A stretch of 33,862 bases of DNA, from positions 1 through 33,862 of the forward strand of contig JALTWL010000301.1 in the NCBI GenBank assembly GCA_027047045.1, in the 5' to 3' direction. Made by a program: the position numbers and the translations under genes. Positions within the stretch are counted from its first letter, which is position 1; the number at the start of each line of letters is the position of its first letter. Under the pieces are notes generated by a model. It saw only the letters and a program-made list of their open reading frames with translations, searched no databases and was not told the origin of the DNA. Source of the stretch: Micavibrio sp. (GTDB lineage Bacteria > Pseudomonadota > Alphaproteobacteria > Micavibrionales > CSBR16-224). This document shows, piece by piece, positions 5,997 through 24,497 of this stretch.

Positions 5997-6260
5997 CTAT
6001 TCTATATCTTTTAAGGTTAATATTTTATTATTTGTATCTCGGTCATTTATATTTTTTAATATCATTTGGTAAAGTTGATCGCATTTTTTCCATATTTCTT
6101 TAGAGCTGTGAGTTTTTTCATATTCTGCTATAATTTTAATTATAGCCTCATCTAGTATTTTAACTATATTTTCCATTTTATATATGTCTGCCTCTGCTAG
6201 CGCATATAGTACTAAAGATAAAATATGTTCCGTTATTTTTTCTGTTATTGCATCTGTCAT
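5997..6260 (-). CDS. small helical hypothetical protein immediately downstream of luxI
   Basis: 87-aa ORF, ATG 14 bp after the luxI stop, amphipathic helical pattern; no family recognised. Confidence 0.65.
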   Translation of the reverse strand: MTDAITEKITEHILSLVLYALAEADIYKMENIVKILDEAIIKIIAEYEKTHSSKEIWKKCDQLYQMILKNINDRDTNNKILTLKDIE

Positions 6261-7062: not shown

Positions 7063-8409
7063 TCACCGCTCATGAAGTGAATTTTTAAGAGCTTTTTTAA
7101 ATGGAGTAATTATATAACTCATAATAGTTTTTTTTCCCGTCATAATATCAACACTTGCGGTCATACCTGCAATTATAGGTAATTTTTCTTGATTATATTC
7201 AATTGCTTTTTTATCACTTTCAAGGGTAACTCTATAGAAATTTTCTCTATATTCGTTAACAATTGTATCTGCGCTTATTTCTTTAACAGTTGCCTCTATT
7301 CCGCCATATGTTTCATAGTCATAGGCGGTAATTTTAACTATTGCTTTTTGTTCTGGATAGATAAAAGCAATATCCGCAGGAGAAATAGAGGCCTCAATTA
7401 TCAAATTATCATTCGAAGGTACGATTTCCATTATCGTTTCTCCTGGCTTTACGACTCCACCAATTGTAGTGATTTTTATATCTTTAATTTTACCATCAAC
7501 TGGGGATAAAATCTCTGTTCTATTTGCTCTATCTTGATAGCTCAGTAGAGCCTCTGTCAAGCTAGCCAGCTCAGTTGTTTTTTGTGATATTTCTTCTTTT
7601 ATTTTAGCCACCTCAGCACTATTTAGGCTTTTTATACGTTCTTCTGCCTCTTTTAGAGCTGATTTTGCTTTTTTTAGCCTAATTTTGGTATTGTTCACTT
7701 CGGCTTGTTGGGCGGCAATTTTACTATTTAATTGTAACAGTTCTATTTTAGATACAGTTCCTTTTTTCTCTAATGGAGCAATAACCGCATGTTCTTCTTT
7801 GGTCAAAGATAGAATTTTAATCGCCCCATTTAAAGTTTCTTCTAGCTCTTTAATTTCTTGTTTTTTCTGCTCTTTTTGCTGTTTTAAAATTTCTAGTTGA
7901 TTTTTATGTTGTTTTATATATGCGTAATAATTTTCTTTTTCAATTTTTACTATATTAGGAGCAGATAAAGTTAATTCTTCAGAAAATTGTGGCTCAGTAT
8001 TTTGTACGATTGCTTTTAGCTTTGCAATTGTTGCTTTCAGGGCAAAAGCTCTGTTTAAATTGGCTTGATATTCCGCATCTGCTTGTACATTTTTAATATT
8101 TACAAGTTTTTGCCCTTTTTTAACACTATCACCCTGTTTTACCAGTATTTTTTCTATTATTCCACCTTCTAAATTTTGTACAAGTTGAATTTTACTTGAT
8201 GGCACAACTTTGCCAACACCTCTTGTAACTTCATCAACTGTTGCAAAATTTGCCCATATTAAAAAGCTAAAAACTATAATTAAAATAGCATAAAGCAAAG
8301 CATAATCTTTCCAGCTGACTGTATTATAAGTGGCAAGTTTATCGTCATATTTATCGCCTAGCTCCATTTTTTTTAAATCTTGTTCTTTAATTTCCATTTT
8401 ATCCACCAT
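7063..8409 (-). CDS. type I secretion membrane fusion protein (HlyD/LapC family)
   Basis: N-terminal TM, DEVTRGVGKVVPS, QNLEGGII, coiled coil, SPVDG, GGVVKPGE.IMEIVP, ISADT, GMTASVDI.TGKKT, ends LHER. Confidence 0.95.
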   Translation of the reverse strand: MVDKMEIKEQDLKKMELGDKYDDKLATYNTVSWKDYALLYAILIIVFSFLIWANFATVDEVTRGVGKVVPSSKIQLVQNLEGGIIEKILVKQGDSVKKGQKLVNIKNVQADAEYQANLNRAFALKATIAKLKAIVQNTEPQFSEELTLSAPNIVKIEKENYYAYIKQHKNQLEILKQQKEQKKQEIKELEETLNGAIKILSLTKEEHAVIAPLEKKGTVSKIELLQLNSKIAAQQAEVNNTKIRLKKAKSALKEAEERIKSLNSAEVAKIKEEISQKTTELASLTEALLSYQDRANRTEILSPVDGKIKDIKITTIGGVVKPGETIMEIVPSNDNLIIEASISPADIAFIYPEQKAIVKITAYDYETYGGIEATVKEISADTIVNEYRENFYRVTLESDKKAIEYNQEKLPIIAGMTASVDIMTGKKTIMSYIITPFKKALKNSLHER

Positions 8410-8414
8410 TTATC

Positions 8415-10649
8415 TTACTCCATATCCTTGAGGTTGGCGGGGTGGTATTGTTTTTCTTGTAGAGCTTTTATAACCTCATCTCTTTTGCCATAATCAATTA
8501 TATGTCCCTTATCCATAAGGGCAAGTTTATCTATTAGCCCCAACAAAGTTGTTCTGTGAGTAATTAGTATAACTGTTTTATTTTTACAAATTTTAATCAG
8601 TTTTTTATAGAGTATTTTTTCTGACCTTGGGTCTATTGAGGCGGTCGGTTCATCTAAAATTAAAATTGGTGGGTCATACAATAATGCCCGTGCAATTGAA
8701 ATTGCTTGTCTTTGCCCACCAGATAAAAGCTCTCCTCTCTCACCAATATGGGTATCAAGTCCAGTTGCTGTGCCTTTCATAAATTCATTTATGCCAGATA
8801 ATTCTGCTGCTCTTAAAATAGCTTCTTCTGGCACTGCTTCATGCCCCATTATTATATTATCCCTAATTGTGCCATAAAACATATATGCATCTTGCTGAGC
8901 CACCCCAATATTGCGCCTAAGGTCGCCAAGCTCTATTTGTCTAACATCAAGCCCATCTATTTCAACCGAGCCCTCAGTTGGCTGATACAAATTAAGAATT
9001 AACCTTTCAAGCGTTGTTTTACCGCAACCAACCGCACCAATGATGCCTACTTTATCGCCCGCCATTATTTCCATATTCACCCTTTTAATAGTGTCGCTTT
9101 GTTGGCTGGGATACCTAAAAGATACATTTCTAAAATTTATATGGCCTTTTAGGGTAGGTTTTGAAACTAATGCTTTTCCAGCCTTACGTTCTACTGGTGA
9201 TGACATAAGCTTATCTAGTCTTTTTAGGGCTGTTTTTGACTGATTAAATTTAGTAATTATCTGAGCCAATTGTGCCAAAGGCGCAATTACTCGCCCAGAT
9301 AAAATGACGCATGCAATCAAAGCACCTGTTGTTATGCTTGCATCTGCAACTAAATAAGCCCCATATATAACCACAAATATTGAACAAAGCGCCGCAACAA
9401 ATCCTGTAAAGCTAACTGCCAAAGCAGATATATGACGTGACTTTACGCTTGTTAGGGAGGATTGTTCAACTATTTCTTCCCATTTTCTTTGGTTATGTCC
9501 TTCGGCTGCTTGTATTTTAATGGTTTCAAGCCCATTTAATGTTTCTATTAAAACGCTACTTTTAAATGCACCTTCCCGTGCATATTCGTCCATTATTTTT
9601 GCTAGTGGTTTTTGCAAAAAATAACCAAAGGCAAAAATAATTATCATTAAGCTAATTGGAACTATGACTAAAGGCCCGCCAATTAGCCATATTAAAAATA
9701 CAAATAGCAAAACAAAAGGCAAATCAACGATTGCCGCCACCGTTGCTGAGGTAAAAAAATCTCTAAGTGTCTCAAATTCCCGCATATTGTCCGCAAGCAT
9801 TCCAGAGCTTGGTGGACGGGCGCACATTTGCATATTTTGAATATGTTCAAATATCCTAGAAGATATTCTAATATCTGCTTTTCTACCTGCGGCATCTAAA
9901 AAATGAGCTCTTAGATTTTTTAAAATGAAATCAAATAACATAGCAACAATCGCCCCAATTCCCAGTACCCAAAGAGTATTAAAAGACTTATGAGGTAACA
10001 CTCTATCATAAACATTCATAATAAAAATCGGACTAACAAGGGCAAACATATTTATCAATAAGGCGGCAAGTACCACTTGTTTGTATAGGTTTGTGTGTTT
10101 TTTAATAGCACTCCAAAACCAATTTTTTTCTGCCTCTATTGCTTTTGGACCTGCACGATCATCAATATTTATCTTAGCGCTAACAAAAAAGCTATATCCT
10201 ATATATTTGCTTTCAAGTTCATCTTTGCTAAGAGTGATTTTTTTTTCTGCAGCCTCAGGAAAGGTAAGACTAGCCCCCGTATCTTCAGAAAATTCATGTA
10301 AAATACATGCATTTTTATCTTTTAATATCAATATACAAGGCAAACTTGGAGATTTTAATATATCACATAGCGGACGCCTTAACAATCTAGCCGACATATT
10401 AACCCGCTCTGCTGCCCTTATAAAAAGCCCAGGTGAAGCAAAGCCATCTTTAGAAAGAGGCAACCCAGCACTAATCGCTGCAATACTTGTTCTTCTACCG
10501 TTCATTTTGGCTAAAATAACCAAACATTCCAGCAGTGGGTCTTCTAAAGACAGTATAGCCGTTTCCGATGCCCAGCTAGAAAAACTTGCTTCAGCCTTAA
10601 TGGTGAATTCTTCCCCCCCCATATTACTTATATCGCTATTGCTTGACAA
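8415..10649 (-). CDS. type I secretion ABC permease/ATPase (LapB/LssB-like, C39-like domain)
   Basis: DPLLECL...AGLP N-domain, PIFIMNVYDRV, Walker A GAVGCGKTT, LSGGQRQ, ILILDEPT. The start may be ATG 10622. Confidence 0.95.
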   Translation of the reverse strand: MSSNSDISNMGGEEFTIKAEASFSSWASETAILSLEDPLLECLVILAKMNGRRTSIAAISAGLPLSKDGFASPGLFIRAAERVNMSARLLRRPLCDILKSPSLPCILILKDKNACILHEFSEDTGASLTFPEAAEKKITLSKDELESKYIGYSFFVSAKINIDDRAGPKAIEAEKNWFWSAIKKHTNLYKQVVLAALLINMFALVSPIFIMNVYDRVLPHKSFNTLWVLGIGAIVAMLFDFILKNLRAHFLDAAGRKADIRISSRIFEHIQNMQMCARPPSSGMLADNMREFETLRDFFTSATVAAIVDLPFVLLFVFLIWLIGGPLVIVPISLMIIIFAFGYFLQKPLAKIMDEYAREGAFKSSVLIETLNGLETIKIQAAEGHNQRKWEEIVEQSSLTSVKSRHISALAVSFTGFVAALCSIFVVIYGAYLVADASITTGALIACVILSGRVIAPLAQLAQIITKFNQSKTALKRLDKLMSSPVERKAGKALVSKPTLKGHINFRNVSFRYPSQQSDTIKRVNMEIMAGDKVGIIGAVGCGKTTLERLILNLYQPTEGSVEIDGLDVRQIELGDLRRNIGVAQQDAYMFYGTIRDNIIMGHEAVPEEAILRAAELSGINEFMKGTATGLDTHIGERGELLSGGQRQAISIARALLYDPPILILDEPTASIDPRSEKILYKKLIKICKNKTVILITHRTTLLGLIDKLALMDKGHIIDYGKRDEVIKALQEKQYHPANLKDME
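10613..10620 (-). repeat. G8 tract at the 5' end of the T1SS ABC gene
   Basis: C8 on the plus strand; ATGGGGGGGGAA on the coding strand. Confidence 0.85.
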
Positions 10650-12372
10650 TGAAACACCCCTCCCATTTAAGCGCTGTAATTTCTTTGCAAATATTTAACG
10701 CATCGCCTTTAGAAACAGGACCTGCTTGCACCCTAAAATAAGTACCTTTTTTCTTTAAATTTGCTTTTTGAATTCTTTTTGTTAGATTTTTAAGTAAATT
10801 AGAGTATCTCTTGTTAATTATAGATAATTTTTCCTCTGCCTCCAAGCTATCTTTATATGCCCCCAGTTGGATAAAATAATTTTTTGGACTAGAGCTCAAA
10901 TCTATAACTTTAGTTGCAGTTTTTTTATCTACTACTTTTATATAATCCTCAGATTTAGGCAAAGATAATTCTGCTTTTTTAGGGGCTTTTGCTGGAATTA
11001 ATTTTATTTCTGTGAAAATCGGGGCTTTTTGTGGTGGTTTTTCAACTATTATTTCTTGCAGGCTGGGGATTTTTATTTTTAGAATTTTAAGCAAATCACC
11101 CCTAAGTGCAATTAAGCGATAATCTGCAAATAGCTTGCTATAAAATACATTGGTTAAGTTGCTTTTTGATATAAATAATTCATTTTGAGTGTTAAGCAAA
11201 TCAAGCAAAGTTCTGCGATTTAATTTAAATTGGTCGTAATATACCTCTACTACCTTTTTATTGGCTTTAACTTGCTCTTTAAATTCGGCTAATTGTTTTA
11301 TTGCCGATTTTCTAGCTGCCCATGTACTTCTAATATCACGCTCTAAACTGCGAATAGCGGCGGCTTTATTATTTTGTGCGATATCTTTTTGATAAAAACT
11401 TTCTTTTATGCGAGCCTTATCCCTGCCACCACGAAATAAATTCCACCTCATCACCATTAGAGCTGAGCCTAAATCTTGCCCTCCTTCAATGCCACTTATA
11501 TCTTCCCCCTTTGTACCAGAAACTTGGAGTTCAACTGTTGGGAAATTTATCCCGTGCGAGCTTTTATAATCTGCCTCTGCTGCCTCTATATTATTGCTGA
11601 GCGATGAAATAGTGGGATTTTTTTCTTTTGCTTGCTCTATTAACTTGGATAATTTTTCAGGTATATAATCCTCCAAAGAATGAGGTATATACATATTCGT
11701 AGGTGGGGCTATACCAACAGTATTTTTATAATTTGCCTCAGCATCTGCTAGACTTTGTTTAACTGATTCAAAATTTGCCCTTGCACGCGCCACTCTTGAT
11801 ATTGCTTGCGCTAAATCACCTTTATTAAATTTACCTCCCCTAACTCCATCTTTAATTCTAGCTAACATATCTGTATGAGCCTTAATATTTTGTTTGGCAA
11901 TATTCAAAAGCTCTCTGCGTCTTAGGACGTTTAAGTAGCTGTTAGTTACACTCAAAGCAGTAAATTCACCTGCTTCAAATAATTTATAGTCTGCTGCTTT
12001 TGACAGTATTTTATCACGTTTTATATTATTTATTGTTGTCGCCCCGTCAAATAAAAGCTGAGTCATAGTCAAGGTTACTTTCCTTCTAAGCAATTCTTCA
12101 TCATTTATAACGGGAGTATCAGTAAATTCAAAACCGCTTTCTGCATTTAAGTCTAATGTAGGAAAAAAGGAAGATTTACTCTGTTTTAGGCGTTGTTCGG
12201 ATATAAGTTTTTGCTTAGCCACCGTGCTAAATTCAGGATTGGTTCTAAGGGTCAGTTCAATTGCCTTTTTTATTGTCAATCCCTGTCCTTCTTTTGGAGA
12301 AGAGTAAGCCCCCCCCCAAAAAAAAAGCCAAATTAAAACAACAAATACCAACAATATCGCAATTTTGCGCAT
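10636..12372 (-). CDS. TolC/LapE-family outer membrane channel with C-terminal SPOR domain
   Basis: Signal peptide, FFPTLDL, QLLFDG, FPTVEL, WNLFRGG, RTLLDLLN.QNE repeats, then a Pro/Lys linker and YFIQLGAY...YFRVQAGP...ICK...CFIV (SPOR pattern). Confidence 0.92.
   Translation of the reverse strand: MRKIAILLVFVVLIWLFFWGGAYSSPKEGQGLTIKKAIELTLRTNPEFSTVAKQKLISEQRLKQSKSSFFPTLDLNAESGFEFTDTPVINDEELLRRKVTLTMTQLLFDGATTINNIKRDKILSKAADYKLFEAGEFTALSVTNSYLNVLRRRELLNIAKQNIKAHTDMLARIKDGVRGGKFNKGDLAQAISRVARARANFESVKQSLADAEANYKNTVGIAPPTNMYIPHSLEDYIPEKLSKLIEQAKEKNPTISSLSNNIEAAEADYKSSHGINFPTVELQVSGTKGEDISGIEGGQDLGSALMVMRWNLFRGGRDKARIKESFYQKDIAQNNKAAAIRSLERDIRSTWAARKSAIKQLAEFKEQVKANKKVVEVYYDQFKLNRRTLLDLLNTQNELFISKSNLTNVFYSKLFADYRLIALRGDLLKILKIKIPSLQEIIVEKPPQKAPIFTEIKLIPAKAPKKAELSLPKSEDYIKVVDKKTATKVIDLSSSPKNYFIQLGAYKDSLEAEEKLSIINKRYSNLLKNLTKRIQKANLKKKGTYFRVQAGPVSKGDALNICKEITALKWEGCFIVKQ
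12309..12326 (-). repeat. T9G9 tandem homopolymer in the tolC signal-peptide coding region
   Basis: Plus strand C9 (12309-12317) followed by A9 (12318-12326). Confidence 0.9.
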
Positions 12373-12571
12373 AATTTTAACACTCTAATTTTTTAAATAA
12401 TTGCCCCTATTCTATCCTACTTTTTTACTAAATAACAATCTTTTAGTGGCTTAAATTTACACTTTTCTAACATTTATCATATAAAATTATATATAGGTAG
12501 AAATATGTCTGTTTTAGAAAATAATAGCATATTTGAATAGCCTGAGATAACTTACAATTAAGGGTTTTATA

Positions 12572-15500
12572 TTGGCTAATAGTTTTTACATTATAATTGA
12601 GGCGAGCTCAAATTATCTAAGCAATGCACCAATTTTAGAAATACTTATCAATGGTGCTGTTGTAAAGAGTGCAACTATTACTACCAAAACTGGTACTGGT
12701 AGTGATAATTTCACCTTTTTGCTTGATTATCCTATTTCCGACTTATCACCTTCATCTATTAGTTTTAGATTTAATGATAACTCTGTTGAAGGTGGACGCA
12801 ATATTACAATTGAAAATGTTAGGATAAATGGTCAGCTAATAGACAGTGCTGATTTATCACAACAGCAACTGTTACAAAATGATATATCAAACCTAAATAT
12901 ACCCAACAATGACCACCTATTCGGTAGAATAGACCCAACACAGGCAGATTTTGATCCAGTTACCATAACTGGCACAGCAGGCGATGATAAATTACAAGCA
13001 GGAATTGGTGATGATGTAATAGATGGTGGTGCAGGTAATGATAGAATACGTGGTGTTCATGACGATGATGCAATAGATGGTGGCGATGGCAATGATACAA
13101 TATTTGGAGAGGCAGGTAACGATATTGTAATTGGTGGTAACGGTAATGACTTAATATTTGGTAATGCTGGTGATGATATATTATTTGGACAGGCTGATAA
13201 TGATGTTTTACTTGGCGGTGCTGGCAACGATGTTCTAAATGGTGGGATTGGCAACGATAGTGCGATAGGCGGGGCTGGTGATGATATTATATTTGGTGAA
13301 GACGGAGATGATACTTTAGTTGGTGTATCAGGTAACGATATTTTATATGGCGATGCTGGCAATGATACGATTGCTGCAGGTACAGGTGATGATACTATGT
13401 ATGGTGGCGATGGTGCAGATGACATTATTGCAGCTAGCGGTAATGATGTTGCCTATGGCGGCATAGGAAATGATTTCATTACAGCTGATGCGGGCAATGA
13501 CTTTGTTGATGGTGGCGCAGATAATGATATGGTATATGGTGGCACAGGCAATGATCAATTAGAAGGTGGCACAGGTAATGACCAAGTTTTTGGTGATAGT
13601 GGTAACGATATCATTGATGGCGAAGATGGCAATGACTTAATTGTTGGTGGTGTTGGCTCTGATAATATTGCAGGTGGCGCAGGTGAAGACATAATTTATG
13701 GCAATGGGCTAGATTCTGTTACCATTTCTGCAATTCTTCGGAGCAATGCAGGACTTGTATATAGCGAATATACAAATAGCTTTTACAAGCTAGTAACTAA
13801 TGCTGTTGATTACTATACAGCCTCTAATGCAGCCAGTGTCTCACTTATCAATGGTGTTAAAGGTAGTATAGTTTCTATTACTAGCGCCGTTGAAAATTCT
13901 ATTGTCCAAAATATTGCTGCTGGCAATGAAATATGGTTAAGTGCAACGGATAGCTTTGCAGAAGGTGAGTGGCGTTGGCAGGGGGGAATAGAAGACAGTA
14001 AACAATTTTGGCAAGGTGATGGCTCTGGTGGTGCTGTTGGTAATATGTACAATAATTGGAATACTGGTGAACCTAACGATTGGGGAAGCGGTGAAGACAA
14101 TGCTGTAATGTATACAAATGGAACATGGAATGATTTAAACGGTATAACAAATAATAGGTTTTATGTAATAGAATGGGAAGCATCTTTATTTTCAGATGAC
14201 AATGCTACAGATTTTATAAATGGCGATGCTGGCAATGATATAATTTCTGGTGATGGAGGAAATGATACCATCTATGGTGGTTTGGGGGTTGATATAATAT
14301 ATGGTGGTTTAGGTGATGACACTATTTATGGGGCAGGCAAAACCAATTATACAAATCCAGAATTTCCTGATACATCTGCTCTATCATCTTATGGAGGTGG
14401 ACAAGATGCAGGTGGAAAAGTAGAAATTATAGATAATGGAGAAGGATTTTCACTAGAGGGCAATTTATGGAAAAAAATTCCCGTAAATTATAATGTAACC
14501 ACAGATACCATCTTAGAATTTGAATTTAAAAGCACAGGAGAAGCTGAAATAAGCGGAATTGGTTTTGATAATGATAATAGTATATCTTCAAGTGCAACAT
14601 TTAAGCTTTATGGAACTCAAAATTGGGGCATAAGTGATTTTGATAATTATAATGGCAGTGGTAATTGGCAGAGCTATTCTATAAATGTTGGTAATTATTA
14701 CACTGGAACATTTTCTGACTTATTTTTTATAAATGATGATGATGCCGGTGGTGTTAATAGTACAGATAATTCTTGGTTTAGAAATATTAAAATTTATGAT
14801 GCAACTGCAACTGATAGTGGTGCAAATACTCTTAACGGCAATGATGGTAATGATACTATTTATGGGGGCTCACAAGATGATATAATATATGGTGATGCTG
14901 GCAATGATACACTTAATGGTAATGATGGTAGAGATATAATATATGGTGATAGCATATCTAAAGTAGTTACTATGGAAGCTGGCGAAATTGCTGTTAGCCA
15001 ATCCAATTCTTCTCAATGGCACAGTATTAGCTTTAGCAGTAGCATTACCAGCCCAATAGTAAAAATGTTTGGACAAGATGTAACGGGCGACCCATTTACC
15101 TTGCGTGTTAGAAATGTAACTAATGGTGGATTTGAATTTCAAATAGATGAATATGACTACCAAGACGGCTCTACTGGTCTGGAAAATATATCTTGGTTTG
15201 CCGTTGCCAGTGGTAGCTACACATTAAGTAATGGTACAAAAATAGAAGCTGGTACAACAACACTAGAAAATGAAATTACTACCAACATATCTTTTAGCGA
15301 TAGTTTTTCTAGCCCTATAGTTTTCTCACAAGTGATGTCTGACAATGAAATGACTGCAGTTGTAACAAGAAATTCCAATGTAAATAGCAATGGTTTTAGA
15401 GTTAGAATGCAAGAAGAAGAAGCAAATCCAAATTTACATAGTCCAGAAACTGTTGGTTGGATTGCTATGGAGGCGGGAGGAACGGCGGCAAATGGTTTTT

Positions 15501-16957
15501 TAATCGGCGAAACAGGTAATAATGTAATACATGATAATTTCACTGTTAATTTTGATACCGCCTTTGATAGCACTCCAATTTTTGTAGCTGATATGCAAAC
15601 TATTGATGGGGGCGATACGGCAAATACAGCCGGTATTTCTATCTCAACGACATCGGCTGTGATATTGATAGATGAAGAAACCTCCAGAGATGCAGAAATT
15701 GGACATACAACAGAAAATGTCGGCTATATAGCCTTAAATGCTGGTACATATACGGCCATAAACGATACTGTAAATGGTAGTGATACAATTAAGGGGGGCT
15801 CAGGTAATGATATATTATACGCCGATAGCAAAGTTGATAGTTCAATATCAACAGGAAATACAGCAAACCCCCTATCAGGCTTGATAATGTCTGACAATGC
15901 AGATGCTTACTGGGATTTATCAGAAATTACAGGAACTACAGCGGATAATCAAGGAAGTTTAGGGGCATCTGTTGATGGAAGAATTTACGGCTCTCCCAAT
16001 ATGGGGGCAACTAAATTATATACATCTGGTAGTACATCAATTGAATTTGATGGTATAAATGATGGTATTAGAATACCAGATAGTGTCGGCATTAACACTG
16101 CTAGTAAATATCCAGAACGCACAGTAGAGCTAGTCTTTAATGCCGATGATATAGATACACGGCAAGTTTTATACGAAGAAGGAGGCACAGTAAATGGTTT
16201 TACAATATATATAGACGGTGGCAGAGTTTATGTTACAGGTGAGGATGATGGTAATTGGGTTGATGCAAATATCAATGCGGAAATATCTGTAAATACAACT
16301 TACCATGTAGCTTTTGTATTTGACCAACCCAATAATAGCTTTACAGGGTATCTTAACGGGGTGAATATTGGTTCTGTTAGTGTTGGCAATCAGCCATTTC
16401 CTTCCCATGGTGCAGATATAGGTATAGGATATGCTCCCGATGGAGTACAATTTGCTGATGGTGAAAGTGGTGGTGGTGTATTTTTCTATTTTGATGGTAA
16501 AATTTCAGATGTTGCTCTTTATAACCAAGCTCTAACACAAAGCCAAATACAAGAACGTGCCAATATTGTAAAAGATATTTTCCCACCCGCAAGACCAATT
16601 GATGATACAATATATGGTGGGGACGGTTTTGACCAAATGTATGGTGGAGATGGTGGACGCGATGTATTTGTCTTTGAATCAGTAAGTGCTTTTAATAATA
16701 TTGATCAAATCAATGGTTTTGATGTGACAGAACAAGATGCACTGGATATAACAGACATACTTACTGGTTACGATCCTATTGCTGATAGTATAGCTGATTT
16801 TGTTCAAATCACAGAAAATGCTGGAAATAGCATAGTTGCCATTGATGCAAATGGTACTGTTGGAGGTAGCAACTATACAGATATGGTTCAAATAAATGGT
16901 GTAACAGACTTAAATGTAGAGGTAATGGAAATAAATTATAACTTAATAACCTCATAA
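12572..16957 (+). CDS. RTX Ca-binding T1SS substrate, multi-lectin adhesin 1
   Basis: TTG start. N-terminal CBM60-like beta domain, many GGxGxDxLx repeats, C-type lectin with EPN/WND (~13750-14176), unassigned beta domain (~14380-14800), three H-type-lectin-like repeats (~14970-15745), LamG-like domain (~15880-16560), C-terminal T1SS target domain (I.GF...DALDITDIL). No signal peptide and no Cys seen. Confidence 0.9.
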   Translation: MANSFYIIIEASSNYLSNAPILEILINGAVVKSATITTKTGTGSDNFTFLLDYPISDLSPSSISFRFNDNSVEGGRNITIENVRINGQLIDSADLSQQQLLQNDISNLNIPNNDHLFGRIDPTQADFDPVTITGTAGDDKLQAGIGDDVIDGGAGNDRIRGVHDDDAIDGGDGNDTIFGEAGNDIVIGGNGNDLIFGNAGDDILFGQADNDVLLGGAGNDVLNGGIGNDSAIGGAGDDIIFGEDGDDTLVGVSGNDILYGDAGNDTIAAGTGDDTMYGGDGADDIIAASGNDVAYGGIGNDFITADAGNDFVDGGADNDMVYGGTGNDQLEGGTGNDQVFGDSGNDIIDGEDGNDLIVGGVGSDNIAGGAGEDIIYGNGLDSVTISAILRSNAGLVYSEYTNSFYKLVTNAVDYYTASNAASVSLINGVKGSIVSITSAVENSIVQNIAAGNEIWLSATDSFAEGEWRWQGGIEDSKQFWQGDGSGGAVGNMYNNWNTGEPNDWGSGEDNAVMYTNGTWNDLNGITNNRFYVIEWEASLFSDDNATDFINGDAGNDIISGDGGNDTIYGGLGVDIIYGGLGDDTIYGAGKTNYTNPEFPDTSALSSYGGGQDAGGKVEIIDNGEGFSLEGNLWKKIPVNYNVTTDTILEFEFKSTGEAEISGIGFDNDNSISSSATFKLYGTQNWGISDFDNYNGSGNWQSYSINVGNYYTGTFSDLFFINDDDAGGVNSTDNSWFRNIKIYDATATDSGANTLNGNDGNDTIYGGSQDDIIYGDAGNDTLNGNDGRDIIYGDSISKVVTMEAGEIAVSQSNSSQWHSISFSSSITSPIVKMFGQDVTGDPFTLRVRNVTNGGFEFQIDEYDYQDGSTGLENISWFAVASGSYTLSNGTKIEAGTTTLENEITTNISFSDSFSSPIVFSQVMSDNEMTAVVTRNSNVNSNGFRVRMQEEEANPNLHSPETVGWIAMEAGGTAANGFLIGETGNNVIHDNFTVNFDTAFDSTPIFVADMQTIDGGDTANTAGISISTTSAVILIDEETSRDAEIGHTTENVGYIALNAGTYTAINDTVNGSDTIKGGSGNDILYADSKVDSSISTGNTANPLSGLIMSDNADAYWDLSEITGTTADNQGSLGASVDGRIYGSPNMGATKLYTSGSTSIEFDGINDGIRIPDSVGINTASKYPERTVELVFNADDIDTRQVLYEEGGTVNGFTIYIDGGRVYVTGEDDGNWVDANINAEISVNTTYHVAFVFDQPNNSFTGYLNGVNIGSVSVGNQPFPSHGADIGIGYAPDGVQFADGESGGGVFFYFDGKISDVALYNQALTQSQIQERANIVKDIFPPARPIDDTIYGGDGFDQMYGGDGGRDVFVFESVSAFNNIDQINGFDVTEQDALDITDILTGYDPIADSIADFVQITENAGNSIVAIDANGTVGGSNYTDMVQINGVTDLNVEVMEINYNLITS

Positions 16958-17074
16958 CAATAACCTCTTAATATATGGTTGGTAATCATACAGTCTTATA
17001 ATTTTTTTAACTTTTCTAATGTAAAATTATAGTTAGATGGTTGTATCTTAAATTTTTAATAATAGATATTTTTT

Positions 17075-20000
17075 ATGCCCAAATTTTATTTGACAATTCA
17101 AGCAAACGCTACTTACAGCTCCGACGCACCAGTTTTAGAAATACTAGTCAACGGTGCTGTTGTTGACAGCGCAACCATATTGTCAAACAGTAATAATTAC
17201 GTATTTTTACTAGACTATCCAGCTGGCACTAACTTCCCAAGCTCTCTTAGCGTTAGATTCAATGACGGTTCTTCTGAAGGTGGTAGAAGCATTTCTATTT
17301 TAGATTTTCAAGTAAACGGACAATCTGTTGATAGTACCGACCTTTCCACAAATTTTTTAACACAAAATCAATCAGCAATTTTAAATACCAATAATACTGA
17401 CCATTTATTTGGTAGAACAGAGCCAACACAAGCAGATTTAGGAACAGCAACAATTACTGGAACGGCGGGTGATGATAAACTAAATGGAACTATTCAAGAC
17501 GATATAGTTGATGGCAGTAGCGGTAATGATTATTTAAGAGGTGTGCAAGGTGATGATGCTATCAATGGAGGGACTGGCAATGACACCATATTTGGTGAAG
17601 ACGGTAATGATATAATAATTGGTGGTGCTGGCAATGATGTTATCTTTGGTAATGCAGGGGAAGACTTACTTTACGGTGGGCTAGATAATGATGTTTTAAT
17701 AGGTGGTTCTGGTAATGATGTTTTAAATGGTGGTTCTGGCAACGATAGCGCAATAGGTGGGGCTGGTGATGACATTATATTTGGTGAAGACGGCGATGAT
17801 ACACTAGTTGGGGCTACGGGTAATGATTATTTATATGGTGATGATGGAATTGACAGCCTAATTGGTGGGGCTGGTAACGATAATCTTTATGGTGGTTTGG
17901 GCAATGATACCTTAATAGGCGGCGCAGGAGTAGATACCATATATGGTGAAGATAACGATGACTTTATCATGGGTGACGCTGGTGACGATAACTTAAACGG
18001 CAATGGTGGAATTGACTTTATATATGGTGGCACAGGCAACGATACCATTAGTGGCGGTTCTGGCAATGATACCCTATATGGTGATGATGGAAATGACACT
18101 ATCAGTGGTGATACAGGCAATGATACCGTTGTCGGTGGGCTTGGTAGTGATACCTTAAATGGTGGTGATGGTATAGATTTAATTTATGGACAGGGGCTAG
18201 ATTCTTTTACGATTTCTAGTATATTGCGCTCTAATTCAAATATTGTCTTTTCTGAAGAAACTAATTCTTTTTACCAATTTGTCCAAACCACAGCGACTTT
18301 TAATGAAGCTAGAAATGGTGCAAGCTCTACCACATTAAATGGGATAGATGGGCATTTAGTTACAATTACCTCTCAAACAGAAAATGATTTCATAAATAAT
18401 CTGGTTGGAACAAATCAGATATGGATTAACGCCACAGATGCAAATAATGACGGGCAGTGGCAATGGGCGGCTGGCGATGAAGATGGTTTAGTATTCTGGG
18501 AAAGTGGTAATGCAGCAAATGGATTTTATACCAATTGGAATACGGGGCAACCAAATCTCTCAACAGGTGATAATGCTGTTACTATGTTAAGCGGTGGGCT
18601 TTGGGATGATTTAAGCTTTAGCACAGCAAATTTTTATGTAATAGAATGGGAACTAGGGAAATTTTCGGATGATAGTGCCGCAGATACTTTAAATGGTGAT
18701 AATGGCAATGATATTTTAACTGGTTATGGAGGTAATGATACTTATAATGGTGGCAATGGTTCTGACCAAATATATGGTGGTGCTGGCAATGATACTTTAA
18801 ATGGTGATGCTGGTGATGATTATATATATGATGCTGAGGGAAGTAATAATTTTAATGGTGGGGCTGGTAATGATTTACTTGACGCCAGATTCACAACAGC
18901 AACTGCCTCTATTGATGAGCAAATAGCCGATATTTTAGCTAATAATCCTGGGGTTACATATAGCTCTAATACGGGTAGTTTCTATAAATATGTATCTACT
19001 TCTACAGATTATCATTCAGCTCTTGCAGCTGCGAAATCTTCTACTATTAAAGGTGTGGCTGGATACCTAACTAACATAACCTCACAAACAGAGCAAGATT
19101 ATGTTTGGGGATTAACTGGTAGCAATAGCATTTGGGCAGGCGGTACAGATGCCAGTATTGAGGGAAATTGGGTATGGACAGATGGGGCAGAAGCAGGAAC
19201 ACAGTTTTGGTCTGGTGGACCTAGTGGCTCTGCCGTTGGTGGCATGTACACTAATTGGATATCAGGATATGAGCCGGGTGATTCTAATGATAACTATGAT
19301 TATTTTGTTTTACATGCTGGTAACTTAGGGAAATGGTATGCTGATTTTGGAACTGTAAATTACAATTATGTAATTGAGTGGAATGAAGATAATATTTTGG
19401 TAACTCCGACGGCTAGTTCTCCCTCGCAATCGGCAAATACTATGAATGGTGGCGATGGTAGCGATACAATTTACGGCGGCACTCAAAATGATACTATTAA
19501 CGGTGATAATGACAATGATTATCTATATGGCGAAGATGGCAATGATACAATAGATGGTGGTGCTGGCGCTGATATAATATATGGCGGTATTGGCAGTGAT
19601 AATATCACTGGTGGTACAGATAATGATACATTGTGGGCATCTGGTTTGGTTGAAGGAACGTCTGACTTAATTAGTGATGATAGCGCTACAAATACTGTCA
19701 GTGGTGGTATGGGTAACGATACAATACATGGTAGTGATGGCACTGATACCTTAAATGGTGGTGCTGGAAATGATATAATTTATTCTAATTCAAAGGCTGG
19801 GGTGGCAGCATACACGGTTGCTGATGCCTTGGCTGAAAATCCTAACGCTGTTTATAATTCTACAACAAATAGTTTTTATGAATATGTGGGGTCTTCTACA
19901 ACGCATAGTCTTGCATCATCTGCAGCGGCTTCTTCTACTTTAAATAATGTTGCCGGACATCTAATTAACATAACCTCGCAAACAGAGCAAGATTATGTTT

Positions 20001-20671
20001 GGAGCTTAACCGGTAGTAATAGTGTTTGGGCGGGTGGTACTGACTCTGTTATTGAAGGGGATTGGGTATGGACAGACGGAGTTGAAGCGGGAATACAATT
20101 TTGGTCTGGTGGACCTAGTGGCTCTGCCGTTGGTGGCATGTACACTAATTGGATAGCAGGATATGAGCCGGGTGATTCTGATGATAACTATGATTATTTT
20201 GTTTTGCATGCTGGCAACTTAGGGAAATGGTATGCTGATTTTGGAACTATGTATTACAACTATGTCATAGAATGGGACGGTGCAAATGTAATCACATCTG
20301 GCACTCCTGCATCTCAAACAATTTTAAGTGGTGGTGATGGGCTGGATAAAATGTATGGAGGCGCTGGAGCTGACACATTTTTATTTGAGGCAATATATGC
20401 ATATAACAATATAGATGAAATTTACAATTTTGATACAACCGATAAAGATGCGCTTGATATTTCTGATATTTTAAAAGGATATGATCCTGCAACTGACGTG
20501 ATTACAAACTGGGTGGAAATGAGAGATTCGGGAAGTAATACTATTGTTAATGTTGATAAAACAGGTAGCGGTCGTTTTGGAGCAAATACACAAATTGCCA
20601 CCTTATTCGGTGTAACTGGGCTTACAGATGAGGTATGGCTTGAAGATAATGGTAATTTAATTACCTCATAA
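17075..20671 (+). CDS. RTX Ca-binding T1SS substrate, multi-lectin adhesin 2 (three C-type lectin domains)
   Basis: Paralogous N-domain and RTX block. Three C-type-lectin-like modules (GHL..ITSQTE...W...TD...G.W.W...YTNW..G[QE]P...YVIEW) at ~18240-18650, ~18945-19381 and ~19845-20275. C-terminal T1SS target domain ends NLITS, as in adhesin 1. Confidence 0.9.
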   Translation: MPKFYLTIQANATYSSDAPVLEILVNGAVVDSATILSNSNNYVFLLDYPAGTNFPSSLSVRFNDGSSEGGRSISILDFQVNGQSVDSTDLSTNFLTQNQSAILNTNNTDHLFGRTEPTQADLGTATITGTAGDDKLNGTIQDDIVDGSSGNDYLRGVQGDDAINGGTGNDTIFGEDGNDIIIGGAGNDVIFGNAGEDLLYGGLDNDVLIGGSGNDVLNGGSGNDSAIGGAGDDIIFGEDGDDTLVGATGNDYLYGDDGIDSLIGGAGNDNLYGGLGNDTLIGGAGVDTIYGEDNDDFIMGDAGDDNLNGNGGIDFIYGGTGNDTISGGSGNDTLYGDDGNDTISGDTGNDTVVGGLGSDTLNGGDGIDLIYGQGLDSFTISSILRSNSNIVFSEETNSFYQFVQTTATFNEARNGASSTTLNGIDGHLVTITSQTENDFINNLVGTNQIWINATDANNDGQWQWAAGDEDGLVFWESGNAANGFYTNWNTGQPNLSTGDNAVTMLSGGLWDDLSFSTANFYVIEWELGKFSDDSAADTLNGDNGNDILTGYGGNDTYNGGNGSDQIYGGAGNDTLNGDAGDDYIYDAEGSNNFNGGAGNDLLDARFTTATASIDEQIADILANNPGVTYSSNTGSFYKYVSTSTDYHSALAAAKSSTIKGVAGYLTNITSQTEQDYVWGLTGSNSIWAGGTDASIEGNWVWTDGAEAGTQFWSGGPSGSAVGGMYTNWISGYEPGDSNDNYDYFVLHAGNLGKWYADFGTVNYNYVIEWNEDNILVTPTASSPSQSANTMNGGDGSDTIYGGTQNDTINGDNDNDYLYGEDGNDTIDGGAGADIIYGGIGSDNITGGTDNDTLWASGLVEGTSDLISDDSATNTVSGGMGNDTIHGSDGTDTLNGGAGNDIIYSNSKAGVAAYTVADALAENPNAVYNSTTNSFYEYVGSSTTHSLASSAAASSTLNNVAGHLINITSQTEQDYVWSLTGSNSVWAGGTDSVIEGDWVWTDGVEAGIQFWSGGPSGSAVGGMYTNWIAGYEPGDSDDNYDYFVLHAGNLGKWYADFGTMYYNYVIEWDGANVITSGTPASQTILSGGDGLDKMYGGAGADTFLFEAIYAYNNIDEIYNFDTTDKDALDISDILKGYDPATDVITNWVEMRDSGSNTIVNVDKTGSGRFGANTQIATLFGVTGLTDEVWLEDNGNLITS
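19205..20248 (+). repeat. intragenic direct repeat, 150 bp (19205-19354 and 20099-20248)
   Basis: Manual alignment: 146/150 identical, offset 894 bp. Confidence 0.9.
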
Positions 20672-20678
20672 CAACAAT

Positions 20679-21185
20679 CTATTGAAATACAGCATTTACC
20701 GTAAATTGACCTTGATAATCCCCACCAGTTGGGGACGCGCCAACCTGCAATGTTGCGCCAATTGGTACTGTTATAAATGGAAGTGATGTTGTATAAGTTG
20801 GACCATTTGCATCAGTTACTATATTAAAAGAAACAAGAGGCATAGTCTCAGTCCCCGCAGTTCTGGTTATTTGACTATTCGCAGGAACACTTATTTGTAT
20901 CAGCTGAAATGGAAAACTTTGCGATACGTTACAAGAGGCATTGTTAAATGGCGCCCCGCCAGTAGTTAGACAACCGCTAACACTACGATTTCCGCTTGGG
21001 GTTAAAACAGCTGTACTAGCCGCCCCACATGTAACTGTAAAATTACCAAATAACATAGGTTGCGGACAGCTAAGAACTTGAGCCTTAGCAATATTGGAAA
21101 GAGCAATATTAGAAAGCGCAATTGCAGATATGCTAACCGCTAAACCCAAAGGTAACTTTTTTAAAATTTTTTTATTCTTTTGCAT
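20679..21185 (-). CDS. secreted DUF4402/Csu-like pilin-type subunit
   Basis: Signal peptide ending AKA-Q, MLFG near the mature N-terminus, four Cys, C-terminal IGATLQV...GDYQGQFTVNAVFQ strand typical of chaperone-usher-like subunits. Confidence 0.72.
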   Translation of the reverse strand: MQKNKKILKKLPLGLAVSISAIALSNIALSNIAKAQVLSCPQPMLFGNFTVTCGAASTAVLTPSGNRSVSGCLTTGGAPFNNASCNVSQSFPFQLIQISVPANSQITRTAGTETMPLVSFNIVTDANGPTYTTSLPFITVPIGATLQVGASPTGGDYQGQFTVNAVFQ

Positions 21186-21246
21186 CTATAAAATCCACTT
21201 ATATATTTAACAAAAATTATTTTTAAATTCAACTACTCAATTTTTA

Positions 21247-22059
21247 TTAAAAATTTACTTCTTTTCTTGCCCAAATTTTATTTGGTGAGTTATATTTTAT
21301 CGTTGATATATAAGCCAACTCTATTTTTTCACATTTATTTTTATGTTCATCTGTATCTGCAAAATTAAGAGAAACCTCTTTATTTGTTAGCTCTTTGTAA
21401 ACGGCAAGCCCATAAATCTCTTTAATGATTACTTTTTCCTTGCCTGTTAGGCAAGAAATTTTAATTTTACCATATATGCTTTTATTGCCCTCTCTGGTGA
21501 TATTAAATTTTAACTTATATTTGCCTGCATCAATATTAGTTAATGTTATATTTTTAATATCTACATCGGCGTTAAAGCTACCATATCTAATAAATACAGG
21601 ATTTATCATACCAACGACAGCATCTGCAGAAAAGTTAGTTTGTTTTTTATCATCGGGTACAGTTTGAACTAATATATGGCTTCTATATTCAATATTTTCT
21701 TCTATTTTTGCATTATTTTTTACAGATATTTTAACTTCTGCCTCTTTACCTGCGGGAATTGTTAAAAATTTAGGTGATATTTCAATAAAATCATCAGCCC
21801 AATTTACATTTTTTATATTTTCATCTATTGAAATTTTTTTTAATGTGCCTAATTTACCGTGCATATAGTAATGCACTAGCTCTATTTTATAGCTTTTCTC
21901 ACTATTGCTAGAATTTTTAATTGTCATTAAGGCTGTTTTATTTTTATCACTTAAAATAAGCCGATTACTTTCAACCGAAATTGCAAAAGACGACTTTGCC
22001 AATATGGCAAAAGACAACAAAAACACACTAAGTAAAATAATATAATATTTATTTTTCAT
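21247..22059 (-). CDS. periplasmic fimbrial chaperone (PapD/EcpB-like)
   Basis: Signal peptide (SFA-I), RLIL, I.N, ISPKFLTIPAGKEAEVKI, EYRSHILVQTVP, PVFIRYG, REGNKSIYG. Confidence 0.78.
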   Translation of the reverse strand: MKNKYYIILLSVFLLSFAILAKSSFAISVESNRLILSDKNKTALMTIKNSSNSEKSYKIELVHYYMHGKLGTLKKISIDENIKNVNWADDFIEISPKFLTIPAGKEAEVKISVKNNAKIEENIEYRSHILVQTVPDDKKQTNFSADAVVGMINPVFIRYGSFNADVDIKNITLTNIDAGKYKLKFNITREGNKSIYGKIKISCLTGKEKVIIKEIYGLAVYKELTNKEVSLNFADTDEHKNKCEKIELAYISTIKYNSPNKIWARKEVNF

Positions 22060-22133
22060 TGCTTAAATTATCACTATTTACACTAATATTGTGAATATTA
22101 TATACTCCATTTTATAAATTACAAGGAAGCTGT

Positions 22134-24497
22134 ATGTTAAGCCACCAAAATATAAATACCAATGATGCACTTAAACTAGCTCAAGAACAAATGCTACTTG
22201 GTAACCATTTGGTTGCAAAGGATATTTTGCTTAAAATAAAAGATATAACAAATGATGCGCAAGATATAAAATATATGCTTGCCATTGTTAATTATAATCT
22301 AGGAGATATAAAAGAAGCGGTTAGAATTTTGCAAAATATAGTTAATTCTAACAATCAAATAGGGGCAGATATATGGTGTAATTTAGCTTGTTTTCTAGCA
22401 GAGCTTAAAAATTACGATAAAGCAAATGATGCTTTTGACCAAGCAATTGCAATAGATAAGAACTATCCAGATAGCTATTGGAATAAAACAAATCTTCTTT
22501 GTTTGATGGGGCTATATGAAGATGCCCAAAAATATGGCTTAAAAGCCACAAAACTCACCCCAAATAGGGAAGAAGCATGGCTTAACTTAGGTGTGGCAGA
22601 GGCTAAATTAAATAATTTTCAAAAAGCAATTCTTGCTTGGGAACAGGCTCTTAAAATCAATCCATATAACAGCATTGCGCTTAGTAATTTGGGCAATATT
22701 TGGCGTGAGGCTGGGGATTTGGATAAGGCAAAGAAATATTGCGAAGATGCTTTAAAACTTGATGGCAACAATGCGCAAGCAATGAATAATTTAGGCAATA
22801 TATTATTTGATTTAGGGCAGTTAAACGATGCTGTTGATTGGTATAAAAAAGCAATTACAAAATCTCCCAATTATGCAGAGGCTCACAATAATTTAGCCGT
22901 GTCTTTGATGCAGTTGCAAAATTTTACAGATGCTATAATTGAGGCAAAATATGCTTGTCTTTTTGATGAAAATTACTCAGATGCTTATATGAACCTTGCG
23001 ATTGCTCTAAAATCAATAGGTAATATCCAAGAGGCTGAACAAGCGCTAAGCAAAGCAATATCCATAGAAAATAATAATCCTATTATTGAAATTGAATATA
23101 TTGACATGTTGTTTACGCTTGGACGGATAAGTGATGCAGAATTATTGCTTAGCCGTATAAAAAGCCAAAATTTTACAAAAGCGCAAGAATATATAAAATT
23201 TGCTACTATATTAGAAAAAATGGGTAAATTTAAAGATGCAATTACGATAGCTAACAAAGCAATTGAACTAAACCCAAAACTACCAGAATCTTATATTAAA
23301 AAGGGACAAATATACCATATGTATGGTAACGCTGATGAGGCAGAAAAATGCTATAATAAGGCAGCCCAAATAAACCCCAACAACCTATCTCTACTTACTG
23401 CTATGGCAGATTTACAGCAAAGCAAAGGCAATAAGGAAAAATCTGAAAAACTAGCAAGAAAGGCAAAAGCCATAAAAGATGATTTACCTGGAATTTACGG
23501 ACTTATTAGTAAAGTAAAAAAATTCACCTCAATAGATGATAAAGATTTAAAAGATATGCTAAAAATTGCTAAAAATGTTGAAGATAAAGGCTTTGAGGCT
23601 GCAGCTACCTTACATTTTGCCATATTTTCTGCGTTTGATAATTTACAAGAATATAAGCTAGCATCTAAACATTTAAAACTGGCAAATGAATATAAAAGAA
23701 AACTTGTTCCCGATATAAAAGTTCAACCACATTTTAATATTATTGATAATTTAAAGCTGGAATATCCAGTTGAAAAATTCTCTGAGCTTCAAAATTTGGG
23801 ATATATGTCTAATATTCCGGTATTTATTGTTGGCATGCCACGTTCTGGCACAAGTTTAACTGAACAAATACTAGCTGCTCACCCCGATATATATGGCGCA
23901 GGAGAAATATTGGATTTTGGTCAAGCAGAGCAAGCCTTTGGCGAAGTGATAAATTCAAATAATTGTTACAAAATAGGCAAATATTATACAGACAATATTA
24001 AAAAGTACGACAAAAGCCAAACAGCTCTTAGAATTGTAAATAAAATGCCTGGTAATTTTATGCGTATTGGACAAATTTTATCTAGCTTGCCCAACGCAAA
24101 AATAATTCATTGCCGAAGAAATGCTCATGATACATCTTTTTCATGTTATAAGCAAAATTTTGCCAAGGGACATGAATGGGCATATGATTTAAATGAAATT
24201 GCAAAATATTATAAATCTTATGAGGAAGTTATGGCTTATTGGCAAAAAACACTTCCCCCAAATAGCTTTTTGGAAATTTTATATGAAGACTTGGTCTATG
24301 ATTTAGAAAAAAATGCAAAAAAACTAATTAAATATTTGGGATTAAGATGGAAAAGTAGTTGCCTAAAGCCACATTTATATAAACGAGATGTATTTACAGC
24401 CTCTAAAAATCAGGTAAGAGAGCCAATTTACACCAGCTCTGTTAACGCTTGGCAGAAATACAGCCCATATTTAACTGAGCTTCAAAATATTTTATAG
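22134..24497 (+). CDS. TPR-repeat-containing sulfotransferase
   Basis: Many TPR motifs (A.NNLG, AW.NLG); PAPS-binding VFIVGMPRSGTSLTEQIL; KMP.NF, IIHCRR..DT..SCY, YEDLV, TAS..QVR.PIY. Confidence 0.93.
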   Translation: MLSHQNINTNDALKLAQEQMLLGNHLVAKDILLKIKDITNDAQDIKYMLAIVNYNLGDIKEAVRILQNIVNSNNQIGADIWCNLACFLAELKNYDKANDAFDQAIAIDKNYPDSYWNKTNLLCLMGLYEDAQKYGLKATKLTPNREEAWLNLGVAEAKLNNFQKAILAWEQALKINPYNSIALSNLGNIWREAGDLDKAKKYCEDALKLDGNNAQAMNNLGNILFDLGQLNDAVDWYKKAITKSPNYAEAHNNLAVSLMQLQNFTDAIIEAKYACLFDENYSDAYMNLAIALKSIGNIQEAEQALSKAISIENNNPIIEIEYIDMLFTLGRISDAELLLSRIKSQNFTKAQEYIKFATILEKMGKFKDAITIANKAIELNPKLPESYIKKGQIYHMYGNADEAEKCYNKAAQINPNNLSLLTAMADLQQSKGNKEKSEKLARKAKAIKDDLPGIYGLISKVKKFTSIDDKDLKDMLKIAKNVEDKGFEAAATLHFAIFSAFDNLQEYKLASKHLKLANEYKRKLVPDIKVQPHFNIIDNLKLEYPVEKFSELQNLGYMSNIPVFIVGMPRSGTSLTEQILAAHPDIYGAGEILDFGQAEQAFGEVINSNNCYKIGKYYTDNIKKYDKSQTALRIVNKMPGNFMRIGQILSSLPNAKIIHCRRNAHDTSFSCYKQNFAKGHEWAYDLNEIAKYYKSYEEVMAYWQKTLPPNSFLEILYEDLVYDLEKNAKKLIKYLGLRWKSSCLKPHLYKRDVFTASKNQVREPIYTSSVNAWQKYSPYLTELQNIL

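Follow-up and report, generated by a model that had tools for sequence, protein, structure and literature searches.

Gene content of the cluster

The gene cluster considered here occupies positions 7,063 to 24,497 of a 33,862-nucleotide contig (JALTWL010000301.1) of the uncultured, low-GC alphaproteobacterium Micavibrio sp.; this whole stretch is referred to below as the window. The cluster brings together a type I exporter, two RTX proteins that carry lectin-type modules, a pilin-like DUF4402 subunit with a PapD-like chaperone, and a sulfotransferase fused to tetratricopeptide repeats (TPR). As argued below, it is quite probable that the exporter, the candidate lectins, the chaperone/subunit pair and the sulfotransferase constitute a conserved surface-protein module. 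All the parts that a sequence-only reading had assigned to an attachment apparatus at this locus were recovered at their places by open reading frame (ORF), Pfam and NCBIfam calls, with only luxI lying just before the start of the interval; also in keeping with that reading, the cluster sits between two housekeeping blocks, the efp side on the left and the pyrE/guaB/ftsJ/uvrC side on the right. The central genes and their major domains are as follows.

7063-8409 (-): HlyD/LssD-type periplasmic adaptor (TIGR01843, 385.9 bits against a cut-off of 208.65)
8415-10649 (-): LssB-type ABC permease/ATPase (TIGR03375, 890 bits against a cut-off of 693.1)
about 10176-10544 (-): N-terminal C39-like domain of the LssB-type ABC protein (Peptidase_C39, 5.2e-6)
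10636-12372 (-): TolC-family outer-membrane channel (TIGR01844, 254.7 bits against a cut-off of 225.15)
about 10645-10890 (-): SPOR domain at the TolC C-terminus, residues 495-576 (E-value 1.3e-6, 29.1 bits against a cut-off of 21)
12572-16957 (+): candidate RTX lectin 1 (RTX1), 1461 residues (Lectin_C, Laminin_G_3, weak H_lectin)
17075-20671 (+): candidate RTX lectin 2 (RTX2), 1198 residues (three Lectin_C stretches)
20679-21185 (-): DUF4402 pilin-like subunit (PF14352, 1.8e-18)
21247-22059 (-): divergent PapD-like periplasmic chaperone (PapD_N, E-value 2.7e-4, 21.3 bits, cut-off 23)
22134-24497 (+): TPR protein fused to a sulfotransferase (Sulfotransfer_3, 2.8e-38)
about 23817-24353 (+): sulfotransferase domain, with a PRSGTS loop at residues 569-574

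Both RTX genes are transcribed divergently from the tolC-ABC-adaptor operon, and their products share a common N-terminal module of 120 residues (hereafter the N-module).

Recurrence of the cluster in related genomes

A scan of metagenomes with an alignment of the N-module gave six loci, three of which (L041, L044 and L045) were excluded from the counts because of too short a flank. The remaining three (L040, L042 and L043), together with 20 fetched genome loci, the window itself, and the loci of genomes G001 and G046, make up the 26 evaluable loci. The gene order of the window is found again in G001, namely, chaperone, DUF4402 gene, two RTX genes convergent with it, and a divergent tolC-ABC-adaptor operon, with the contig starting at the chaperone gene. 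L042, a metagenome contig with 57% G+C, shows the same gene order as the window and also has the TolC-SPOR fusion and the TPR protein. In L040 and L043, the DUF4402 gene immediately follows the RTX gene, and rearranged gene orders are found in G046, G535, G547 and G474. Overall, a DUF4402 gene of the window type lies less than 400 nucleotides from N-module RTX genes in 13 of the 26 loci, and this proximity is realized in four different arrangements, in which the DUF4402 gene is located either downstream (convergent or on the same strand) or upstream (on the same strand or divergent).

The subunit genes found next to RTX genes appear to be a special variety. In the phylogenetic tree, a 99/97 branch splits the RTX-adjacent DUF4402 copies from eight copies that belong to usher-containing operons; eight database sequences of unknown neighborhood are on the RTX-adjacent side as well. 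The RTX-type DUF4402 is strongly matched in 14 of 150 relatives, and 13 of these 14 also possess the N-module, which is found in 25 of the 150 overall (Fisher's exact test 3.7e-11, uncorrected for relatedness).

Orthologues of the sulfotransferase, with 37-43% identity, occur in six loci (the window, L042, G046, G535, G547 and G474), and in all six the gene directly adjoins either the chaperone/subunit genes or the gene for a 399-residue protein that opens the chaperone/subunit operon. It keeps company with the chaperone and subunit genes rather than with the exporter. The genomes hold one to three sulfotransferase copies each; the copy within the cluster was the best match in each of the four genomes that gave a match, and in G046 it is the sole copy. 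No sulfotransferase match was found in G001, whose genome is incomplete.

Since these parts recur together in relatives, in the same or in a rearranged order, the exporter, the RTX lectins, the subunit, the chaperone and the sulfotransferase likely form a functional unit. The earlier proposal of an integrated system thus stands as far as these five components are concerned; the quorum sensing, the switching and the lifestyle that it also comprised find no support (see below).

The type I exporter

The ABC protein, the adaptor and the TolC channel each score above the curated NCBIfam cut-offs, as expected of a type I secretion system. The three genes stay together in all 21 neighborhoods of exporter orthologues, where the ABC proteins are 47-65% identical to that of the window, the highest value being that of G001 (65%). 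Only in the window, G001, G046 and L042 is the exporter divergent from, or located beside, N-module RTX genes; accordingly, the N-module is present in 2 of the 21 exporter neighborhoods (G001 and G046). Most of the other neighborhoods (L019-L036) have a different cargo gene just upstream of tolC, on the same strand, and this cargo has nothing but the 115-residue C-terminal secretion domain in common with the RTX proteins of the window. Because most orthologues are preceded by such other cargo with the same C-terminal domain, the exporter seems to be the general route of this clade for the VCA0849-type secretion signal.

The window's TolC ends in a linker rich in Pro and Lys that is followed by a peptidoglycan-binding SPOR domain. 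The fusion is retained in L042 (tolC at 3622-5460, minus strand; SPOR 6.6e-6) and is missing from TolC in all 21 exporter neighborhoods, those of G001 and G046 included, where the matches end by query residue 477. The fusion could tether the TolC channel to peptidoglycan. Among the 10 papers listed out of 4,516 in a literature search on SPOR and TolC, none contained the phrase "SPOR domain", which does not prove absence.

The RTX proteins as candidate lectins

Both RTX proteins show what is expected of RTX-type cargo of a type I system, that is, nonapeptide calcium-binding repeats (HemolysinCabind, 1.8e-76 and 2.8e-91) and a VCA0849-type C-terminal secretion domain (TIGR03661, 31.0 bits in RTX1 and 30.5 bits in RTX2, cut-off 17.6). 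The modules mapped within these proteins are the following.

12572-12946 (+): CBM60-like N-module of RTX1
13856-14155 (+): C-type lectin-like domain of RTX1, containing the motifs EPN (residue 500) and WND (residue 519)
residues about 590-745 and 795-1090 of RTX1: two beta modules without family assignment
16052-16552 (+): LamG of RTX1
16703-16906 (+): VCA0849-type secretion domain of RTX1
17075-17449 (+): N-module of RTX2, of the same type as in RTX1

The N-module of RTX1 is matched by the CBM60 family model (PF16841) at 9.9e-7 and 29.6 bits, just above the cut-off of 28.2, and that of RTX2 stays below this cut-off. The fold argues for the same assignment: a model of the RTX2 module built from an alignment of 13 sequences (pLDDT 89.6) retrieved the vCBM60 structures 2xhh and 2xfd as the top two Foldseek matches (E-values 2.1e-5 and 2.2e-4, TM 0.60-0.68, probability 1.00). 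Thus, family model and fold agree on CBM60, with the binding of ligand and calcium being predicted.

Further downstream, Lectin_C (PF00059) scores 36.2 bits in RTX1 and 76.6 bits in RTX2 (cut-off 22.6), and Laminin_G_3 is above its cut-off as well. The site motifs of C-type lectins are EPN or QPD, plus WND. RTX1 carries EPN and WND at the canonical spacing, which would be a calcium and sugar site of the mannose type, and the solved sequences closest to this domain are the carbohydrate-recognition domains of collectins (about 1e-7). RTX2 contains three C-type lectin-like domains followed by the VCA0849-type C-terminal domain; the last two lectin domains stem from a recent duplication, with 86% nucleotide identity over 300 nucleotides. 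When the RTX1 segment was searched in isolation, H_lectin reached only 0.062, and residues of about 590-745 and 795-1090 could be assigned to no family. Taken together, these assignments suggest that the RTX proteins bind glycans.

It has to be considered whether the RTX proteins could be cytolysins or bacteriocin-like toxins instead. The RTX hemolysin model NF033943 does match them, in the repeat region only and with 162.8 and 220.2 bits compared to a cut-off of 1000; no acyltransferase or other toxin family is found among the window ORFs of at least 80 residues, and the non-repeat modules all show folds of the carbohydrate-binding type. A toxin function is, therefore, very hard to sustain.

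Proteins with the N-module are rare: a word-based search of 5.8 billion protein clusters yielded only 12, and the module is present in 25 of the 150 near relatives as compared to 2 of the 401 genomes in a sample drawn from the whole class. Their module sets vary, with Lectin_C, LamG, PPC and cadherin modules behind the common N-terminus. Three genomes (G548, G539 and G540) contain five to seven N-module RTX paralogues each, with differing module sets and several of the genes in tandem, which indicates that the lectin heads diversify rapidly. The turnover of lectin modules, for which the sequence-only reading had proposed a test, is borne out by paralogues that differ in the C-type lectin, LamG and two other modules.

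The DUF4402 subunit, its chaperone and a putative usher

Judged by eye, both the DUF4402 subunit and the chaperone have signal peptides; the subunit also has four conserved cysteines. In a wide structural search with the subunit model (pLDDT 76), the Csu pilin 7zl4_A tied as the best match (Z 6.2, root-mean-square deviation 3.5, 107 residues aligned), and at least 10 other chaperone-usher pilins were among the top 50. The DUF4402 profile found nothing meaningful among the PDB sequences, and "DUF4402" had no match in the full-text library searched. The chaperone profile matches PapD at 1.1e-3 and, weakly, also FimC and CupB2; the protein groups with Atlas clusters named "molecular chaperone", and an exhaustive search recovered 1180 relatives of the same length, a word-based search having returned only the protein itself.

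A complex of the two proteins was predicted with ipSAE values of 0.84, 0.85 and 0.84, whereas none of three controls exceeded 0.00; of the solved complexes, 116 of 157 attain the mark applied to such predictions, as do 2 of 215 mismatched pairs. The runs agree in at least 82% of their contacts, with a partner pLDDT of at least 81. In the predicted complex, chaperone strand 139-154 is packed between the C-terminal strand 156-168 and the N-terminal strand 35-49 of the subunit, so that an incomplete immunoglobulin-like (Ig-like) fold is completed by a strand of the chaperone, in the prediction only. The chaperone is thus predicted to hold the DUF4402 subunit by donor-strand complementation.

Homologues of a 927-residue usher-like protein are encoded after the chaperone gene in G046, G474 and G535, and others are found elsewhere in the genome of G001. 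A full operon is seen in two loci of relatives (L018, 2123-8566, minus strand; L054, 8949-15392, plus strand), where it codes for a 399-residue protein, two DUF4402 proteins, the chaperone and the 927-residue protein. Comparison of the latter with the Pfam usher models, NCBIfam and the PDB sequences gave no match; at its C-terminus, there is a carboxypeptidase-regulatory-like domain. This protein is likely to be the usher.

The TPR-sulfotransferase

The sulfotransferase shows no signal peptide by eye and is taken as cytoplasmic. Ahead of the sulfotransferase domain lie about 500 residues of TPR repeats; their arrangement is that of O-GlcNAc transferase, the top entry among the natural TPR proteins matched. 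The PRSGTS motif is presumably the loop that binds 3'-phosphoadenosine 5'-phosphosulfate. The best matches among solved sequences are the protein-tyrosine sulfotransferases TPST1 and TPST2, at 1.7e-6 to 2.3e-5 only. By raw counts, 9 of the 54 tyrosines of RTX1 and 15 of the 57 of RTX2 stand in an acidic context.

Coupled module or chance neighborhood

The most serious competitor of the conserved module is a neighborhood of surface genes without functional coupling, in which an ordinary exporter/RTX system would lie next to a remnant of a chaperone-usher system (the chaperone and DUF4402 genes) and to a sulfotransferase acting on a polysaccharide, a small molecule or something else. Several observations speak for this possibility or weigh against the coupled module. 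The window contains no usher-like gene, as judged by homology to the 927-residue protein, and, therefore, the assembly of a fiber cannot be argued from the window alone. In 13 of the 26 N-module RTX loci, no DUF4402 gene was found within the 20 kb examined; both genes are present but not adjacent in 4 of 13 genomes (G536, G054, G048 and G509); and DUF4402 genes are common on their own in the clade (33 of 61 genomes). The exporter is unlinked in all 20 further N-module genome loci, and in G535, G547, G474, G532 and G538 it is distant from the cluster. The loci are, moreover, related to each other, so that the counts and the Fisher test overstate their independence, and the likeness of the sulfotransferase to tyrosylprotein sulfotransferases, at about 1e-6, is weak.

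The assignments of individual proteins have their weak sides, too. The fold matches of DUF4402 are middling at the Z-score given above, and Foldseek found no match to its model at an E-value of 0.001 or better. The PapD_N score of the chaperone is below the Pfam cut-off, and the successful complex prediction may reflect the likeness of a chaperone-usher-like pair to solved complexes. The sugar-site motifs of the RTX2 domains are degenerate (QPN/WDD once, EPG/WYA twice). Animal C-type lectin domains have conserved disulfide bonds; neither RTX1 nor RTX2 contains a single cysteine, so their lectin-like domains lack this hallmark, although cysteine-free domains are to be expected in proteins that are exported unfolded.

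Against the uncoupled neighborhood, the adjacency of the genes persists across four gene orders and from 33% to 57% G+C; the RTX-adjacent subunits form a tree group of their own and show strong phyletic co-occurrence with the N-module; and the cluster sulfotransferase is consistently the best match of its genome, up to being the only one in G046. On balance, mere neighborhood appears unlikely, and the conserved module is the explanation that we favor.

Flanking genes and the question of quorum sensing

Outside the central genes, the window contains the following features.

left flank: efp, an inositol monophosphatase gene, an OmpA-family gene, then a DUF218 gene (ORF, Pfam and NCBIfam calls)
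left of luxI: a histidine kinase of the MASE3 type and two single-domain response regulators, a kinase/regulator pair among them lying at 3371-5917 (-)
5997-6260 (-): 87-residue orphan without a family match, 3' of luxI
6275-6901 (-): luxI-type acyl-homoserine-lactone synthase (Autoind_synth, 1.6e-26)
24681-25511 (-): ankyrin-repeat protein of 276 residues, directly after the TPR-sulfotransferase gene
right flank: pyrE, guaB, ftsJ, a CDP-alcohol phosphatidyltransferase gene, uvrC and an AMP-binding enzyme gene

Across the window, the G+C content per kilobase ranges from 26 to 44%. Among the sequencing runs listed for this DNA, none is of RNA; one that contains the complete stretch carries the label of a hydrothermal vent metagenome and may be its source. 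The ankyrin-repeat protein has no homologue in any related locus examined.

The position of luxI had invited a far-reaching interpretation, namely, an attachment apparatus, directed to the septum, switchable and under quorum-sensing control, in a Micavibrio-like epibiont. Indeed, luxI starts 161 nucleotides after the adaptor gene on the same strand, with no predicted terminator in between, and it may be co-transcribed with the exporter; the scan for promoters and terminators performed at chance level, however, with 105 promoter-like sites versus 89 expected and 14 terminator-like sites versus 12. The same interpretation could appeal to the SPOR domain of TolC in the window and L042 and to the ankyrin-repeat gene next door. 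SPOR domains are known from septal targeting elsewhere, and the proposed spatial targeting would be an analogy drawn from this one domain, which the TolC proteins of G001 and G046 do without.

The conservation data, on the other hand, separate luxI from the cluster. It is encoded in none of the 21 exporter neighborhoods of relatives; the orthologue in G001 (46% identity) is located on another contig, next to luxR, and in G535, G547, G532, G474 and G046 luxI is either far from the cluster or not found. The place beside luxI that luxR takes in G001 is occupied in the window by the exporter operon. Nor does the window offer the means of the proposed regulation: no luxR (Autoind_bind) was found among its ORFs, the five matches to the lux-box pattern CTG-N10-CAG (3.3 expected) all fall inside ORFs with none intergenic, and neither a phase-variable tract nor an invertible element was detected, the only periodicity being that of 27 nucleotides in the RTX repeats. 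Density regulation and switchability thus lose their footing along with the quorum-sensing link; luxI is a neighbor in this genome only, not a part of the conserved module, and the apparatus as originally conceived is improbable.

A histidine kinase and a single-domain (CheY-like) response regulator recur by the cluster in G046 and G535, as in the window (3371-5917, minus strand); the kinase/regulator pairs of relatives lie at 6503-8516 in L037 and at 12635-15219 in L046. The sensor domains of these kinases differ (MASE3, PAS, CHASE-PAS), and orthology is not claimed; the pair may be a conserved regulator or merely a common gene pair.

How the module could work

With the conserved module as the preferred explanation, the following scenario can be envisaged. 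The type I system of TolC, LssB and LssD would export both RTX proteins, which would leave the cell unfolded, with the C-terminus first, and fold outside on calcium to become multivalent lectins. Behind the calcium-dependent, CBM60-like N-module, they would carry exchangeable modules for glycan binding, among them those of the C-type lectin-like and LamG types. In the periplasm, the PapD-like chaperone would keep the DUF4402 subunit complemented with a donor strand; this subunit, a special paralogue found in the company of RTX genes, would probably be displayed at the surface by a DUF4402-type usher encoded elsewhere. The cytoplasmic TPR-sulfotransferase would probably modify one exported protein, such as an RTX cargo or the pilin-like subunit, before export. 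Accordingly worded, the most likely function is that of exported multivalent calcium-dependent lectins cooperating with a surface subunit of the chaperone-usher type. The cooperation between lectins and subunit is suggested by gene linkage only; the target of the sulfotransferase and a role of the module in attachment are, likewise, what we infer from the genes.

A more daring version goes one step further: the RTX-adjacent DUF4402 protein would be a docking subunit on a divergent chaperone-usher machine and would capture the lectins by their N-module, so that two pathways would build a single adhesive organelle with exchangeable lectin heads, and tyrosine sulfation of one partner, carried out in the cytoplasm by the TPR-sulfotransferase, would establish or adjust the contact. 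We put this forward as a speculation with a rather small chance of being correct.

The cluster defines a rare family of putative secreted bacterial lectins, in which RTX1 carries a putative sugar site with the EPN and WND motifs of the animal type. A specific DUF4402 paralogue, its chaperone and an enzyme resembling tyrosylprotein sulfotransferases accompany these RTX lectins headed by CBM60. This provides a concrete, testable case for the role of the DUF4402 "pilins" and for the substrates of the very large bacterial family of TPR-sulfotransferases, while an attractive interpretation by quorum sensing has been removed as unsupported.

Comparison with known systems

RTX adhesins that carry sugar-binding modules and leave the cell by type I secretion are represented by LapA of Pseudomonas, MpIBP of Marinomonas and the Marinobacter adhesin (PMC6650083). 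They are large calcium-binding proteins with modules for ligands and, like the window's proteins, combine a C-terminal secretion signal with an adjacent ABC/adaptor/TolC exporter. The RTX proteins of the window differ from the LapA type in that their N-terminus is CBM60-like instead of a Lap retention module, in that they are devoid of a long array of Ig-like extenders, the modules being C-type lectin-like and LamG, and in that their genes are accompanied by those of a pilin-like subunit, a chaperone and a sulfotransferase. An RTX adhesin retained in the Lap manner was considered and rejected on account of this N-terminus and because the LapG and LapD families are not among the window ORFs of at least 80 residues, although they could exist elsewhere in the genome.

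The archaic (sigma) Csu pili of Acinetobacter baumannii (PDB 7zl4 and 6fjy) rely on an Ig-like subunit and a two-domain periplasmic chaperone, to which the window's pair would correspond. The interface predicted for the window's pair shares the donor-strand geometry with Csu, whose pilin is among the best fold matches. The subunit belongs, however, to DUF4402 rather than to the spore-coat-U family, and the sequence similarity is near noise; unlike in Csu, the locus has no usher, and the subunit is tied to proteins secreted by the type I route. As to the exporter itself, the Lss system of Legionella is comparable, inasmuch as the ABC protein belongs to the LssB subfamily and the adaptor gene is adjacent, whereas in the window tolC is part of the operon and fused to SPOR, and the cargo genes are adjacent.

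A precedent for the remaining component is the raxX-raxSTAB system of Xanthomonas, in which sulfation is coupled to type I export (PMC4646787, PMC6637879). There, the gene for an enzyme of the tyrosylprotein sulfotransferase type accompanies those of a type I exporter and its cargo, and the window's candidate enzyme of this kind has similar company. The window's enzyme, unlike RaxST, is fused to about 500 residues of TPR, and sulfation by it is a prediction. Moreover, its candidate cargo exceeds 1000 residues as opposed to the 60-residue peptide of the rax system, and its gene is located beside the chaperone and subunit genes, whereas that of rax resides inside the exporter operon.

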